DNA of 11,101 nt from a virus (lineage: Duplodnaviria > Heunggongvirae > Uroviricota > Caudoviricetes): positions 1 through 11,101 of the IMG/VR virus record IMGVR_UViG_2663763286_000016; one strand, given 5' to 3'. Positions 1,492 through 9,444 of the stretch are shown here, one piece after another; position 1 is the first letter of the stretch, and every line of letters starts with the position of its first letter. The notes beneath the pieces are model-generated. The model had not been told where the DNA came from. It saw nothing but the letters and a program-made list of their open reading frames with translations, and searched no databases. Both the position numbers and the translations under genes were made by a program.

Positions 1492-1531
1492 ACTCACCAC
1501 CAAGGCTTTCCACGACCATAAGGGTGGTGAG
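1492..1531. promoter_or_regulatory. 9-bp perfect inverted repeat (CTCACCACC ... GGTGGTGAG, 22-bp spacer) just upstream of the Rha start
   Basis: Read directly from the sequence at 1492-1500 and 1523-1531. Function as operator or RNA hairpin is unknown. Confidence 0.3.
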
Positions 1532-1630
1532 ACGTACAGGGGTGGAAATACCGGTGACTACCGAAACCGGCCAGCCTTTCGGCTGCCCTGCACGCCCCAC
1601 CATAATCTGAATGTGGCTGTGCATTACGCA

Positions 1631-1655
1631 TAAAAAAACCGCATGAGCGCGGTTA
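1631..1655 (-). terminator. Rho-independent terminator for leftward transcription
   Basis: On the minus strand: AACCGC-GCTCAT-GCGGTT hairpin (5-6 bp GC-rich stem) followed by a run of seven T (plus-strand A run 1632-1638). Lies between the pL-like operon and the Rha gene. Confidence 0.6.
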
Positions 1656-2297
1656 TGCGCAGTAGTCATCATCGGGTTTCCACGCCCGGCACCCGCTTTA
1701 TGAGGTGCAGGTGCACTATAATTCCACCCGTTCTGGTTTTCAATAGCTACATTCAACATTTTCTCTTACCCTTCATCACCGAAGTGAACTTTGTTGATGC
1801 AGTGCCTGGTGCCTCCAGGTGACGTTAACCAGTTAACAATTAACGCCGGATACAGAGAATCCACCCATAACACTGTTTTTGGTTTTAACTGTTCCGCGTG
1901 CGCTGAGCCGCATTCACCGCATCACAAAATTCACTTTAAAAAGGGCGGACATCAGTTCATGGGCAAACAGATGCCGCCAAACGTCACCAGAAAATTGATA
2001 ACAGAGGGCGTTGCAGCGGGGTTGTCACTTAAGCGTATGGTCAACCTGACAACCCGGTGTCCTCAACGGGGAAGGAATAACCCCGCCATACTTACCGCCG
2101 CGCCATTTCGCGGAGTGCCACAACCGGAAGCGCACGGTCGACGAAAATTTAACGACAGGCTATCTATGAACCAGCTACCTCGCCGTGCGCTTTCGCGTTA
2201 TGGTCTGACTTTTCAGGGAAATATCCTTTCAGTAAACTGTCAGTGCCGGATGCTTACCCGTGTCCGGCGCACGCACTCTACCTCACCCGTGAATAAA

Positions 2298-3720: not shown

Positions 3721-4225
3721 ACAGGTTTGTGAGGCTCTGGATGCCTGGGTATGCCGACCAGGAATGACACAGGAGCAGGCGACGATATTAATCACGGAAG
3801 CATTCTGGGCTCTGAAAGAACGCCCGAACATCGATGTTCAACGCGTCACGTTTAATGATGGCGAGGTTGATCAACGGGCGTTGGGCGTTAACCGGGTGAA
3901 GATATTCGAACGCTGGAAAGCTATCGACACCAGGGATAAGCGGGAAAAATTCACGGCGCTGATTCCGGCAATTATGGAGGCTATCCGGATCAGCGATTTC
4001 AGGTTGTATTGTGAAATTACTGACGGAAAAAGCATTACGTACATGATCGCCGGGTTAAACAAAGAATATGGTGATGTGGTGGAGTCCGGGCTGCTTTTTG
4101 CGGATCCATCTGTTGTGGAACGTGAGACTGACGAGCTTATAGAAAAAGCTATTGCTTTCAAGCATGCGTATCGTCAGCAATACCAACAAAAAGCTGGATG
4201 GAATTATGAGCCTTCTTTTTGCTGA
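3704..4225 (+). CDS. YdaT-like / cII-position early regulator, 173 aa
   Basis: ORF track 3704..4225, overlapping the cro-like stop. Central ALIPAIMEAI region resembles YdaT-family proteins of the Rac prophage (recollection, moderate certainty). Confidence 0.65.
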   Translation: MKITPEQVCEALDAWVCRPGMTQEQATILITEAFWALKERPNIDVQRVTFNDGEVDQRALGVNRVKIFERWKAIDTRDKREKFTALIPAIMEAIRISDFRLYCEITDGKSITYMIAGLNKEYGDVVESGLLFADPSVVERETDELIEKAIAFKHAYRQQYQQKAGWNYEPSFC

Positions 4226-5618: not shown

Positions 5619-5664
5619 AATTGTCACAGGTAATGAAATTAAAGAGTATTGGTTCGGATATGAA

Positions 5665-5693
5665 TTGACATTTTCGCGGCACAGAGCTAAAAA
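5665..5693 (+). promoter_or_regulatory. Candidate sigma70 promoter in the AT-rich region upstream of the SIR2-like gene
   Basis: TTGACA at 5665-5670, 17-bp spacer, TAAAAA at 5688-5693. The 370-bp intergenic region contains several other -10-like hexamers. Confidence 0.3.
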
Positions 5694-5986
5694 TAGCCTA
5701 CTTGTTGGTTTTGTGTGAAAAGCAGACATTTTGAGGCTCAGGATTTGTTATCAAATAAGACCAATACTTATCTATATTAATACACATTAAATACTGTGCA
5801 ATACATTATTGCATTTTATTAGATAAGCGATATTTAGGGAAAAGAAAAGTCATAGAAAACAGGCCGCTATTTGTTGTTGGATTTTATAGGCTATATCTAG
5901 ATTATCTTGCCACTGCGGTCTCTGTTTACCTAACAGCTTGGGCTTCTTTGCATGCAAGTTTGTAATAACAAGTGTAATCAAACGGA

Positions 5987-7018
5987 ATGTCTATTAATCC
6001 TAAACTTAAGCGTATCGCGCGACGCTATCCAGCGTTATTCCAATATGAGTCCCCCTATATGGCAAGAAAATTAATAATATTCGGCAACGGTCTCGGTATG
6101 GCTTTAGATCCTGCTCACTTCTCCTTAGACAGAGCGTTGGAAGAAATTTGGCATCGCCCCAATTTTTTAAAAGATATCCACAAGCAACTTATCGAGCGTT
6201 GTCTTCAGCGGCAAGGTCCACCAGAAGGAGAACATGAGTTGGATACCCTTCACCAGGCTGTCACATATTGTAAAGCTCTTGCTCAAATTGGAGAGGGGAA
6301 CGTGCATTGGCTTACTGACGATGGACTAAACTTCCCCAAAATTACCGCCACTTATATTCACAAAGTTGCAACCAGGTTGCATAATTACGATAAAGGTTTG
6401 CCACAAAGATTCGAAAATGCGCTTGTGGAGTTTGTAAAGAACACACACTCACATATCGCGACATTAAACTATGACAAATTATTATACAATTCATTCATAG
6501 ATAATGATATATTCAACGGGTATGATGGGGTTTTAGTTGATGGGATGCTAAGCCACGGATTTTCCTCTGCAGCGCTCGAACGGAAATACAATCGTAGGTT
6601 TGGTTATTATTTGCACTTGCATGGTTCACCACTATTTATTAATCAGCATGAAAATGTTTTAAAACTTTCACGCTCACAACTTACTCTTGACATAGATGAA
6701 CCTAGTGAGCATATAGTGTTAACTCATATAAAAAGAAAACCGTCAGTTATAGCAGCATCTAATGTTCTTTCTACGTACTGGGATTATTTGCAGTTTGCAT
6801 TATTTGAATCAGAAGAAATAATATTGTTTGGTTACTCTGGTCTCGATATTCACCTTAACCTGCTTATTCGACCTTACCTAACCTCTAAGCCTTTAAGAGT
6901 AATTGAGTGGAGCGGTGCTGGTGAACAAAACGCTCGTGAGATATATTGGAAAAACCAGTTGAGACGGGAAGTTACTGTAATTAGGTTGGATAACATCACT
7001 GATTTTATTGATTGGTAG
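5987..7018 (+). CDS. SIR2-like protein (SIR2_2 / defence-type sirtuin fold), 343 aa; candidate NAD-consuming defence effector
   Basis: Glycine-rich N-terminal motif LIIFGNGLGMAL, TLNYD motif (residues 159-163), HLHGS (210-214) and a C-terminal LFGYSGLD motif, matching the spacing and residues of SIR2_2-family domains as in ThsA/DSR proteins (from memory). The gene looks markedly AT-rich. Start uncertain: 5987 or the in-frame ATG at 6059. Confidence 0.65.
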   Translation: MSINPKLKRIARRYPALFQYESPYMARKLIIFGNGLGMALDPAHFSLDRALEEIWHRPNFLKDIHKQLIERCLQRQGPPEGEHELDTLHQAVTYCKALAQIGEGNVHWLTDDGLNFPKITATYIHKVATRLHNYDKGLPQRFENALVEFVKNTHSHIATLNYDKLLYNSFIDNDIFNGYDGVLVDGMLSHGFSSAALERKYNRRFGYYLHLHGSPLFINQHENVLKLSRSQLTLDIDEPSEHIVLTHIKRKPSVIAASNVLSTYWDYLQFALFESEEIILFGYSGLDIHLNLLIRPYLTSKPLRVIEWSGAGEQNAREIYWKNQLRREVTVIRLDNITDFIDW

Positions 7019-7088
7019 CGCAATGCGAAGTTAAAGAGGCAGCCTCATATTTATCAGAGCTGGTGTACGTCCAATACAGGAGGTTATC

Positions 7089-7178
7089 GTGCTGGTTCTC
7101 AAATGCGCGCTGGCTATTGCGGCTGTAGTGGCAATTTATTGTCTTGCTATTGTTCTTATGGATCGCCTTTCTGATTGA
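7089..7178 (+). CDS. Small hydrophobic peptide (29 aa, single predicted transmembrane helix)
   Basis: GTG at 7089 preceded by CAGGAGG with a 5-nt spacer. Hand translation VLVLKCALAIAAVVAIYCLAIVLMDRLSD, stop TGA at 7176-7178. Lies 70 bp downstream of the SIR2-like gene on the same strand. Not in the ORF track (too short). Confidence 0.45.
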   Translation: MLVLKCALAIAAVVAIYCLAIVLMDRLSD

Positions 7179-7279
7179 TTTTATATTGGCGAGGTGACGG
7201 GAGTTAAGTAGAATTGCTGCGGGTGCTTGAGGCTATCTGCCTCAGGCATGAACACCAAAAGGCAGATAGAGAAAAGCCC

Positions 7280-7342
7280 CAGTTAACATTACGCGTCCTG
7301 CAAGACGCTTAACATTAATCTGAGGCCATATCTATGCGACAC
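7280..7342 (-). ncRNA. Putative Sok-like antisense RNA (hypothetical; extent approximate)
   Basis: Candidate minus-strand promoter: TTGACC (plus 7376..7371), 16-bp spacer, GCTAAT (plus 7354..7349). This would start an antisense transcript covering the start of the short leader ORF, as in hok/sok loci. No clear terminator was identified. Confidence 0.2.
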
Positions 7343-7393
7343 ATAGAGATTAGCCTCTTACGGACCAAAAGGTCAAGGAGAAGCAGGCTATGA
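7334..7393 (+). CDS. Short leader ORF (19 aa) coupled to hok; mok-like by position
   Basis: ATG at 7334 sits inside a hairpin (TCTATG cgaca CATAGA). The TGA at 7391-7393 overlaps the hok ATG at 7390-7392. Confidence 0.3.
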   Translation: MRHIEISLLRTKRSRRSRL

Positions 7394-7545
7394 AGCAGCA
7401 AAAGGCGATGTTAATCGCCCTGATCGTCATCTGTTTAACCGTCATAGTGACGGCACTGGTAACGAGGAAAGACCTCTGCGAGGTACGAATCCGAACCGGC
7501 CAGACGGAGGTCGCTGTCTTCACAGCTTACGAACCTGAGGAGTAA
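7390..7545 (+). CDS. hokD: Hok/Gef-family type I toxin, 51 aa (matches HokD/RelF as remembered)
   Basis: Hand translation MKQQKAMLIALIVICLTVIVTALVTRKDLCEVRIRTGQTEVAVFTAYEPEE. AAGGAG 9 nt upstream. Upstream leader is rich in long-range complementary segments. Confidence 0.88.
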   Translation: MKQQKAMLIALIVICLTVIVTALVTRKDLCEVRIRTGQTEVAVFTAYEPEE

Positions 7546-7709: not shown

Positions 7710-8360
7710 ATGAATGAAAATCAGTTAGCTCCTTGTTGGGAATTTCAACCTTATCTTGCTGAAAACTATGTTCGCCACTTGTTGGCGGAGATCGCTAACG
7801 TACTTGAGCAGCTGTACTATCATAAGCACGCATTAGACAGCAACTGGTCTGAAGGTGTAAGGGCTTATGATTGGGTCAGAAATCATCTTATTCAAAATGA
7901 AGATGCAATTCCTGGCCTTGAGATGATTTCCAAGGGGTTGGACTATGTAGTTGCTTTAAATAAAGTTCCGCTACAATTTACCAAAGATTGCATTAATAAC
8001 CCCAAAAAGAAACATCGTCTGCGTCGAAATAAAGTAGAGTATGAGCAGCTCTCATTGTTTGGTGATGTTGAGGCTGAGCAAGATATTACATGGCGAGTCA
8101 TAGCTGAGCCTTTTTTATCCGAAGAGGGCGATGGTGAATTAGAGTCCACACTGCCTCGTTGGGAGGTAGCTCTTGTTGGATTTAATACTTATGGTGCTCA
8201 GATTAGTATAGTTTCTCATCAATCTACAGCATCGATGCCGCTTATGCCTCTTGATTATAACACACTCCCTGACGAAGCGGAGATTAATAAGGTGCCTCTT
8301 CGTCGGCGTACGAAGGATAAAGATTTGGATGTGAGCAGTGATGGAACATCAGGTGAATAA
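7710..8360 (+). CDS. Hypothetical protein, 216 aa, first gene of a two-gene module; contains a QLSLF pentapeptide
   Basis: ORF track 7710..8360. No family recognised. Residues 113-117 are QLSLF, flanked by a basic run (NPKKKHRLRRNK) and an acidic run. The 3' end overlaps the start of the next gene. Confidence 0.65.
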   Translation: MNENQLAPCWEFQPYLAENYVRHLLAEIANVLEQLYYHKHALDSNWSEGVRAYDWVRNHLIQNEDAIPGLEMISKGLDYVVALNKVPLQFTKDCINNPKKKHRLRRNKVEYEQLSLFGDVEAEQDITWRVIAEPFLSEEGDGELESTLPRWEVALVGFNTYGAQISIVSHQSTASMPLMPLDYNTLPDEAEINKVPLRRRTKDKDLDVSSDGTSGE

Positions 8361-9444
8361 CTTCACTGAGTATCGGGGTGATAAGCTCAAACTAGCGAGA
8401 ATGGCTGTTGGGCTTTCTTGTGAAGAGTTAGCCGAAAAAATTGGCAAGACAAAGCAATTCGTTAGCAAACTGGAGAAGGGGTGCAGGCCATCGGAGCAAT
8501 GTCTTGAGTTAATATCTTCAGCGCTTATGATTAAGTCCAGTTTTCTTTTTACTGAACGAAAATACGCTCTGGAAAGTGATGTCTGCCATTTTCGGAGTAA
8601 GAAGTCCAGGACTCAAACGCTGACTAATAGTGTATTGGCCAGGGCTGAGATTCTTAATATTATAATTTCTGCTGTTGAAGGTGAAATCGAATTTCCTGAC
8701 GTTAACATACCGGAGCACCCAGGGGCTGAATTACTTACTCCGAATGATATTGAGCGAGTGGCAGAAGATTGTCGCCGTGCCTGGAATTTAGGTCTTGGCC
8801 CTATATCATCAATGGTTAAATTGGCGGAGAGTTTAGGGGTAATCGTTGCGCATGTTACGGGAGTCGATGATCGTGTTGATGCTTTTACTGTTCACAATAA
8901 CAGGCCTGTTATCATCAGGAACAATGTTAAAAAAAGCATATGTAGATTTCGCTCTGATTTAGGTCATGAATTAGGGCATTTAGTAATGCATGAGGGCATA
9001 ACGACAGGTGATAAACTTACGGAATCACAAGCCGATCACTTTTCGAGCGCCTTATTAGTTCCCAGGTTATCTTTCATTAAAGAATTTCCACGAATACGAG
9101 GTAAGCAATTCGACTGGAATGCTCTGGTTGAATTTAAACTTAGATGGAAAATCAGCCTTAAAATGTGTATTTATCGAGCCAGCGCATTAGGCTTATTGAC
9201 CCAGGAACAGGCAAGAACTGGCTATATGCATCTTAATTCCAGAGGGTATACGAGAGTTGAACCTGGTGATGAACTTTTGCGCCCTGAAGAACCCGGCATG
9301 CTGGCCGAGGCGATTGAAATGCTGGATGATGCAACCTGGCTAAGAATTCTTATGAAAACTGGCTTGAGCCAAGATTTAATTCGTGAGTTGTTCTCCATCA
9401 ACAGACCTATTACAAATCCAAGAAATATTTTCCAGATTGTTTGA
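8341..9444 (+). CDS. Fusion of XRE-family HTH and ImmA/IrrE-type zinc metallopeptidase (COG2856-like), about 367 aa
   Basis: N-terminal HTH (LKLARMAVGLSCEELAEKIGKTKQFVSKLEKG) and an HEXXH motif (HELGH, residues 210-214, around nt 8965-8979). ATG at 8341; the track start at 8338 is GTG. Confidence 0.8.
   Translation: MEHQVNNFTEYRGDKLKLARMAVGLSCEELAEKIGKTKQFVSKLEKGCRPSEQCLELISSALMIKSSFLFTERKYALESDVCHFRSKKSRTQTLTNSVLARAEILNIIISAVEGEIEFPDVNIPEHPGAELLTPNDIERVAEDCRRAWNLGLGPISSMVKLAESLGVIVAHVTGVDDRVDAFTVHNNRPVIIRNNVKKSICRFRSDLGHELGHLVMHEGITTGDKLTESQADHFSSALLVPRLSFIKEFPRIRGKQFDWNALVEFKLRWKISLKMCIYRASALGLLTQEQARTGYMHLNSRGYTRVEPGDELLRPEEPGMLAEAIEMLDDATWLRILMKTGLSQDLIRELFSINRPITNPRNIFQIV

Follow-up and report, generated by a model that had tools for sequence, protein, structure and literature searches.

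A conserved 29-codon gene beside the hok promoter of lambda-like Escherichia and Shigella prophages, probably encoding a small inner-membrane protein

The toxins of type I systems (Hok, Ldr, Ibs, ShoB, TisB, DinQ and ZorO) are peptides of fewer than 60 amino acids whose single hydrophobic helix has a short polar stretch at one end. The canonical hok/mok/sok locus (R1 parB; RF01794) is defined by three genes, those for Hok, for the overlapping mok leader and for the Sok antisense RNA inside the hok leader, and the R1 hok/sok locus works without any additional small gene of the kind described here. Another well-known class is formed by the bacterial small membrane proteins, among them MgtS, AcrZ and MgrB, which modulate larger membrane proteins (in part after bioRxiv 10.64898/2026.09.28.754932). 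These proteins have about 30 residues and a single transmembrane helix, they show selection on the helix sequence and were missed by automatic annotation. Their genes belong to the chromosomal core, and their partners and regulators are known.

A third point of reference is a 34-codon gene of E. coli O157:H7 Sakai, which lies inside XECs145 (now ECs_5710) of prophage Sp6, upstream of a mok/hok gene. In the ribosome-profiling data of Hücker et al. 2017 (PMC5597208) XECs145 had in LB an RNA RPKM of 79.1, a footprint RPKM of 346.1, a ribosome coverage value (RCV) of 4.35 and a coverage of 0.99, whereas short annotated genes averaged an RCV of 1.55 there. In BHI the corresponding values were 121.3 (RNA RPKM), 150.1 (footprint RPKM) and 1.14 (RCV), and under stress there was essentially no translation; read mapping in Sakai may be affected by repeated prophage sequence.

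The DNA analysed here (the window) is a stretch of 11,101 nucleotides from an IMG/VR virus record and shares 99.8% identity with a lambda-like prophage carried by E. coli O55:H7. Its gene order is immunity and replication genes, DUF977 (Ren-like), the SIR2-like gene, the small ORF, hokD/sok, RmrT/RmrA (Rosmer) and DUF968/RusA/Q. The features surrounding the small ORF are listed in Table 1. In another part of the window (1520-1708, minus strand) an Rfam C4 antisense RNA (79 bits) adjoins isrK (64 bits), the pair lying inside or beside the minus-strand ORF 905-1759; this arrangement is familiar from P1/P7-type antirepressor control.

Table 1. Features around the small ORF, in positions of the 11,101-nt window
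Feature	Position	Strand	Basis or remark
SIR2-like (SIR2_2/DUF4917) cargo gene	5987-7018	+	PGAP start 6059; profile and homologue searches
Candidate sigma-70 promoter of the small ORF	7023-7051	+	Read from allele alignments
Shine-Dalgarno sequence AGGAGG	7078-7083	+	5 nt ahead of the GTG; read off the sequence
Small ORF	7089-7178	+	GTG start, 29 aa and TGA stop; predicted single TM helix, tail MDRLSD
hok promoter (TTGGCG, 17 nt, TAGAAT)	7186-7214	+	Consensus scan; starts 8 nt after the ORF stop codon
hok mRNA leader and sok region	7221-7392	+	Rfam RF01794, 107.5 bits
mok-like 19-aa leader ORF	7334-7393	+	Stop codon overlaps the hok ATG
hokD toxin CDS, 51 aa	7390-7545	+	Start codon 212 nt beyond the final base of the ORF stop

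The first-pass annotation had pointed out an unlisted ORF with a near-consensus Shine-Dalgarno sequence, and both the ORF and the ribosome binding site are present where it placed them. The product, MLVLKCALAIAAVVAIYCLAIVLMDRLSD, was proposed to be a single hydrophobic helix with a polar tail. This description was borne out: the best 19-residue window has a Kyte-Doolittle value of 2.84, the usual cut-off for a transmembrane segment being about 1.6. Likewise, the impression that the peptide matches none of the named toxins (Hok, Ldr, TisB, ShoB, Ibs, DinQ) agrees with profile searches, in which Pfam, NCBIfam and PHROG (E-value up to 1) and PADLOC (E-value up to 0.01) gave no match. In the RefSeq genomes examined the ORF is absent from the PGAP annotation. 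The exact protein occurs in GenBank, for example in REL606, as 'hypothetical protein' or 'membrane protein'. A full-text literature search with the peptide string found no match, and the peptide is not visible in the main text of a preprint on CFT073 small proteins. Neither a name nor a curated model exists for the family, which we regard as new.

Among 5426 complete E. coli genomes, the DNA query 7020-7215 gave 3613 hits and matched 3055 genomes; in 1814 of the 5426 the block 7036-7215 was present at 80% coverage or more. The block was also found in E. albertii, E. ruysiae and S. flexneri, and in the free phages Tritos, Evi, mEp460_ev081 and HannyBb. A search of 1.84 billion representative proteins returned close relatives only (79-94% identity), which speaks for the lack of a wider family. 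Judged from these searches the 29-aa family is young and narrow, confined to lambda-like prophages of Escherichia and Shigella and to DNA derived from them. The peptide is also encoded, at 89-93% identity, on three short contigs (L009-L014; 2.6-3.3 kb) of metagenome-assembled genomes that bear the labels Collinsella, Scatousia and Haemophilus; mis-binning of Escherichia prophage DNA is the most likely reason.

Chance alone can produce a 30-codon ORF behind a Shine-Dalgarno sequence in 11 kb of DNA; it is conservation that raises this one above chance expectation. Ninety-eight loci were gathered from E. coli genomes, one-genome-per-species contigs, phage records and IMG/VR. The ORF was complete in 94 of them, which represent 39 distinct alleles of a 225-nt region, 18 ORF alleles and 9 protein variants. 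All 39 alleles have the ORF open, with zero frameshifts and zero premature stops, and the start codon is GTG in every allele of the set (ATG on the Shigella virulence plasmid pINV). GGAGG or GGAGA is present in 38 of the 39. Conservation of the frame in related sequences, on which the first-pass annotation had made its proposal depend, was thus found, and it was accompanied by a synonymous excess specific to the frame: there were 18 synonymous and 12 non-synonymous substitutions in the coding frame, and 7:23 in each of the other two (Fisher p = 0.001). Variable sites are distributed 7/5/15 over codon positions 1/2/3, and the amino acid replacements are conservative (A/V/T, I/V, M/V, D/E, R/H). 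The NG86 omega was 0.10 between the window and SCU-109, 0.20 between the 29-aa consensus and the Shigella pINV copy, and 0.23 between the 29-aa family and the 34-aa family described below, at dS values of 0.6-1.3. The helix residues L8, A9, V13, Y17, L19 and L23 are invariant, and A12 and C18 nearly so. Conservation along the helix had no significant periodicity at 100 degrees (p = 0.25), hence a conserved interaction face was not demonstrated. Folding of the RNA of both strands gave no excess of structure over shuffled sequence (z = -0.06 and 0.20) and the small-ORF stretch had no Rfam match; selection at the protein level is therefore the best explanation of the conservation. As far as sequence comparison can tell, ORF 7089-7178 is a real gene with selection acting on its amino acid sequence.

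The opposite view would be that the ORF has no function, the DNA being kept as a cis element (upstream of hok, or as a recombination boundary of the hotspot) or owing to recent spread. Such a view would fit the narrow taxonomic range, the conservation of the upstream block 7036-7088 and the existence of defective alleles, which are rare: one has lost the stop codon, one has a frameshift and an 11-nt deletion removes the stop codon. Conservation could in part reflect recent spread, but dS values of 0.6-1.3 argue otherwise. Between the 29-aa and 34-aa families dS is 1.29 (saturating), yet 13 of 23 residues are identical. Since, moreover, the frame-specific synonymous excess is found in two separate families and the sister gene is translated, we hold a non-functional ORF to be very improbable. 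The 11-nt deletion was seen in IMG/VR loci L194-L197, downstream of a SIR2 allele 88% identical to that of the window, and its product is a 35-aa variant, MLALTCVLAIVAVLVIYCLVVAFMERFSDWRGRGS, which reads into the hok -35 region.

A weak tblastn match on an IncY plasmid led to the sister family. The plasmid carries a 34-aa ORF, MSDDLSLAMEGALAVISVVGVYCLVVFLMDRMGN, and hok starts 245 nt after its stop codon. In EHEC prophages the sister protein MSDDISLAMEGALAVIAVVGVYCLVVFLMDRLGN (WP_001278450.1) takes the same slot, between the variable region after DUF977 and the hok promoter of lambda-like prophages. Alignment of the 29-aa and 34-aa families by hhalign gave a probability of 96.8%, a pairwise E-value of 2.6e-10 and 48% identity over 27 columns, scores that are to be read with the tendency of short transmembrane sequences to inflate profile comparisons. 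The DNA alignment of the two genes runs through the stop codon. In the 34-aa family (81 IMG/VR loci) the synonymous to non-synonymous ratio was 11:5 in frame, as opposed to 2:12 and 1:14 off frame. Its distance to hok was 244-246 nt in 58 of the 63 loci scored. The XECs145/ECs_5710 small-protein family, as defined in this analysis, has a transmembrane core leading to YCL...LMDR and two to three further residues, and its genes lie directly upstream of a hok promoter in a lambda-like prophage; the 29-aa ORF has all of these.

Both members thus share the homologous core with its LMDR tail, purifying selection and a predicted inner-membrane location. They differ in the N-terminus, which is acidic in the 34-aa form (MSDDISLAMEG) and MLVLK in the 29-aa form, and their charge distribution leads to topology predictions that disagree. 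The 34-aa gene starts with ATG, is followed by a 30-nt palindrome-containing insert before the hok promoter and is annotated in RefSeq as a 34-aa 'hypothetical protein', unlike the 29-aa form, which is absent there. The palindrome, a perfect 10-bp CGATATGGGAATTCCCATATCG with no T-run after it, lies between the ORF stop and the hok promoter (L184, 3207-3300; L102, 1588-1660). Just upstream of the 34-aa gene there is also a 27-aa hydrophobic ORF, MNWPEAFAITGVAMAIAFLVYVICRWG, with a Shine-Dalgarno sequence (L102, 1364-1447; L104-L183). We considered it as a tandem paralogue and rejected it, several alleles being frameshifted, interrupted by a stop codon or altered by an Asp in the helix; it is probably non-functional as a gene.

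XECs145 is the sole relative for which ribosome profiling is available. These data are direct evidence of transcription and translation of the family in lysogens that had not been induced; for the 29-aa form the evidence is indirect. The strong translation that the first-pass annotation ascribed to the 29-aa ORF is what we infer.

The ORF had also been considered a possible membrane partner of the SIR2-like protein. Such a partner or effector of a defence protein could be expected from the local arrangement: the ORF follows the SIR2-like gene on the same strand, 70 nt downstream, with no intervening terminator. Compared with the 88%-identical SIR2 allele (L194, 1482-1620), the window has lost about 110 nt at 7019-7045; gone with them are a 10-bp hairpin that follows the SIR2 stop and, from the candidate promoter of the ORF, the -35 element TTGAAT. 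As a consequence of this loss the SIR2-like gene and the small ORF probably form one transcription unit here. The distribution of the two genes contradicts the idea. Homology to other loci begins at window position 7036, just 3′ of the SIR2 stop codon, and no conserved co-occurrence was found across genomes, the SIR2-like gene being upstream in only 9 of the 94 peptide loci. Other genes occupy this place in the remaining 85. The nearest upstream ORFs fall into about 30-33 unrelated clusters (a few are probably spurious ORFs) and include genes for a DUF4209 protein, a restriction endonuclease, QueH and a SEC-C protein; at a decayed prophage edge, the upstream gene is a host MFS gene.

The SIR2-like protein, for its part, belongs to a widespread family. 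A total of 794 homologues were found, and the best 120 of the 794 had 56-82% identity; the hosts include Pantoea, Serratia, Klebsiella, Aeromonas, Vibrio and beyond. In three contexts, all non-prophage (73-82% identity; Serratia, Aeromonas and Klebsiella), there was no peptide homologue and no convincing hydrophobic small ORF downstream, whereas the peptide family is restricted to Escherichia and Shigella. The diversity of upstream genes and the peptide-free SIR2 homologues lead us to regard the SIR2 adjacency as an accident of cargo insertion, and we rejected a functional partnership with the SIR2-like protein as extremely unlikely.

What lies upstream of the ORF is a highly variable cargo hotspot, which extends in the window from DUF977 to the small ORF (5619-7088) and was seen also in loci L002-L098. 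Its cargo is often defence-like: SIR2, restriction endonuclease, AAA-type ATPases, RelA/SpoT-like and Abi-like proteins. The small ORF and hok/sok form the conserved right flank of this cargo/defence hotspot, which lies between DUF977 and the nin/Q region. The two genes after hok (7710-9444) match the Rosmer anti-phage system in PADLOC (RmrT, 4.6e-25; RmrA, 6.2e-105), and RmrA has both an HTH and a peptidase M78 domain. In the window prophage Rosmer is thus placed side by side with hok/sok and the SIR2-like gene.

The constant neighbour of the small ORF is hok. In 83 of the 94 loci hok starts 214-216 nt downstream of the ORF; four loci have no hok, and seven contigs end too early to tell. The neighbouring locus (7221-7545) is itself a member of the hok/mok/sok group. 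The small ORF resembles a part of it by physical adjacency and conserved linkage, but it lies outside the three defining genes, wholly upstream of the hok promoter and the Rfam leader, and the canonical locus and many hokD loci do without it. The fixed spacing, the comparable arrangement in the 34-aa family and the 8 nt between stop codon and hok -35, with no terminator between, would suit an accessory gene of hok/sok, whose peptide modulates Hok as a co-toxin or protective factor, or whose expression tunes hok. However, the ORF stays intact where the hok CDS is absent or decayed (SCU-109, the S. flexneri chromosome, Shigella pINV). Conversely, hok was matched in 4727 genomes as compared with 1814 for the small-ORF block, and many hokD loci (O157:H7, several QueH and SEC-C cargo alleles) retain only the last 20-60 nt of the ORF; it follows that the ORF is dispensable and that hok does not need it. 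Neither does R1 hok/sok, as mentioned above. At the K-12 hokD locus relBE occupies the place of the small-ORF region, which makes K-12 data sets unusable for this ORF.

An omega of 0.1-0.2 is not expected of an upstream ORF acting purely in cis, and on this ground the idea of a cis-acting leader peptide was rejected. Taken as a whole, an accessory role in hok/sok seems to us improbable. The same holds, a little more strongly, for its specific form, in which the peptide would be a protein-level partner that joins Hok in the inner membrane to gate or potentiate pore formation. If that were true, the hok/sok of lambda-like prophages would be a four-part module (peptide, mok, hok, sok), and the hok-less copies on pINV and in SCU-109 would be relics or re-purposed. 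What can be stated firmly is that the gene is independent of SIR2, is fixed beside the hok promoter and persists where hok is absent.

One of the hok-less copies is found on the virulence plasmid of Shigella and enteroinvasive E. coli (EIEC). The pINV homologue, MLVLKGTLAIAAVMTIYCLIVVLMERFSD, has 29 aa and an ATG start, and was found in at least 135 Shigella/EIEC plasmid records (CP037924_00134 in the Prokka annotation of M90T). It sits 290 nt upstream of icsP (sopA), and all that follows it on the 3′ side is a decayed hok promoter with about 70 nt of hok leader. The region corresponds to L100 (pWR501) 3940-4200 and to complement(90780..91060) of M90T pWR100. The ORF and the hok relic fall within the long icsP regulatory region, which has been studied for control by VirB and H-NS; the arrangement suggests that icsP came in with lambda-like prophage DNA.

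The alleles were also compared for signals that could drive or control the gene. The candidate sigma-70 promoter has the -10 element CATATT (7046-7051) some 40 nt ahead of the start codon, without variation among the alleles. The -35 element is TTGAAT or TTGAAG with a 17-nt spacer in most alleles; it is missing in four alleles (13 loci) and in the window allele, which has a degenerate ATGCGA. A consensus promoter scan of the window did not call this site. The published transcription start site (TSS) table of M90T pWR100 has no start at the matching position; apart from the icsP starts it lists near the ORF only a 'novel transcript' TSS, on the ORF's strand and 321 nt upstream of it. Because of the -35 losses, the lack of a scan call and the M90T start sites, we consider the promoter a candidate only.

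On the minus strand the consensus scan found a promoter-like site (TTAACT, 18 nt, TAAAAT; 7207 to 7178), from which an RNA complementary to the 3′ end of the ORF would be transcribed. Such an RNA, or one acting in trans, would be what holds the peptide in check if it were the membrane-damaging toxin of an independent type I-like module. Size, hydrophobicity, predicted helix and polar tail are typical of type I toxins, and the gene resembles theirs in residing in a mobile element beside another type I locus, hok/sok. Nevertheless, the antisense site overlaps the hok promoter and is conserved neither in the pINV allele nor in the 34-aa family, and pINV retains the ORF with its ATG start although the candidate antisense promoter is gone. 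Type I toxin genes differ further from this one in that no structured leader or conserved antisense RNA was found here: the untranslated leader is short, the strong Shine-Dalgarno sequence is exposed, with no conserved structure sequestering it, and neither strand had the excess folding or Rfam match mentioned above. The peptide has no sequence match to the toxins and belongs to none of the named families (Hok/Gef, Ldr, Ibs, TisB or others), and ribosome coverage of its sister gene is high in cultures that are growing. The evidence leans against an independent type I toxin, and we consider it unlikely.

The reading that we prefer, with a probability of roughly 60%, is that the gene encodes a constitutively made, single-pass inner-membrane small protein of an uncharacterised family. 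Lysogens would produce the peptide continuously, with transcription either from a promoter of its own or by read-through, and it would insert into the inner membrane. There its conserved helix and LMDR boundary motif may be the parts through which it acts, the peptide binding to itself or to a different membrane protein, as most characterised bacterial small membrane proteins do. A killer toxin that is kept tightly silenced is not what we expect. We favour a non-lethal role in modulating membrane functions over such a toxin because the Shine-Dalgarno sequence is strong and exposed with no conserved RNA control element, because growing cells translate the sister gene well, because pINV keeps the gene although both hok and the candidate antisense promoter are missing there, and because selection acts on specific helix residues and on the LMDR motif. 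In length, single helix, selection on the helix sequence and escape from automatic annotation the 29-aa protein is comparable to MgtS, AcrZ and MgrB; it differs from them in being prophage-borne and restricted to Escherichia and Shigella.

The gene occurs in about one in three complete E. coli genomes and on almost all of the Shigella virulence plasmids examined, yet it is absent from RefSeq annotation and has never been studied, while a relative of its product was already listed, uncommented, in a ribosome-profiling supplement. As the fixed right border of a variable hotspot, the gene offers a useful anchor for mining such hotspots. In Shigella, a membrane-peptide gene and a hok relic lie unrecognised inside the much-studied icsP regulatory region. 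Finally, the constant pairing with hok raises a testable question, namely whether type I toxin loci may have accessories that act at the protein level.
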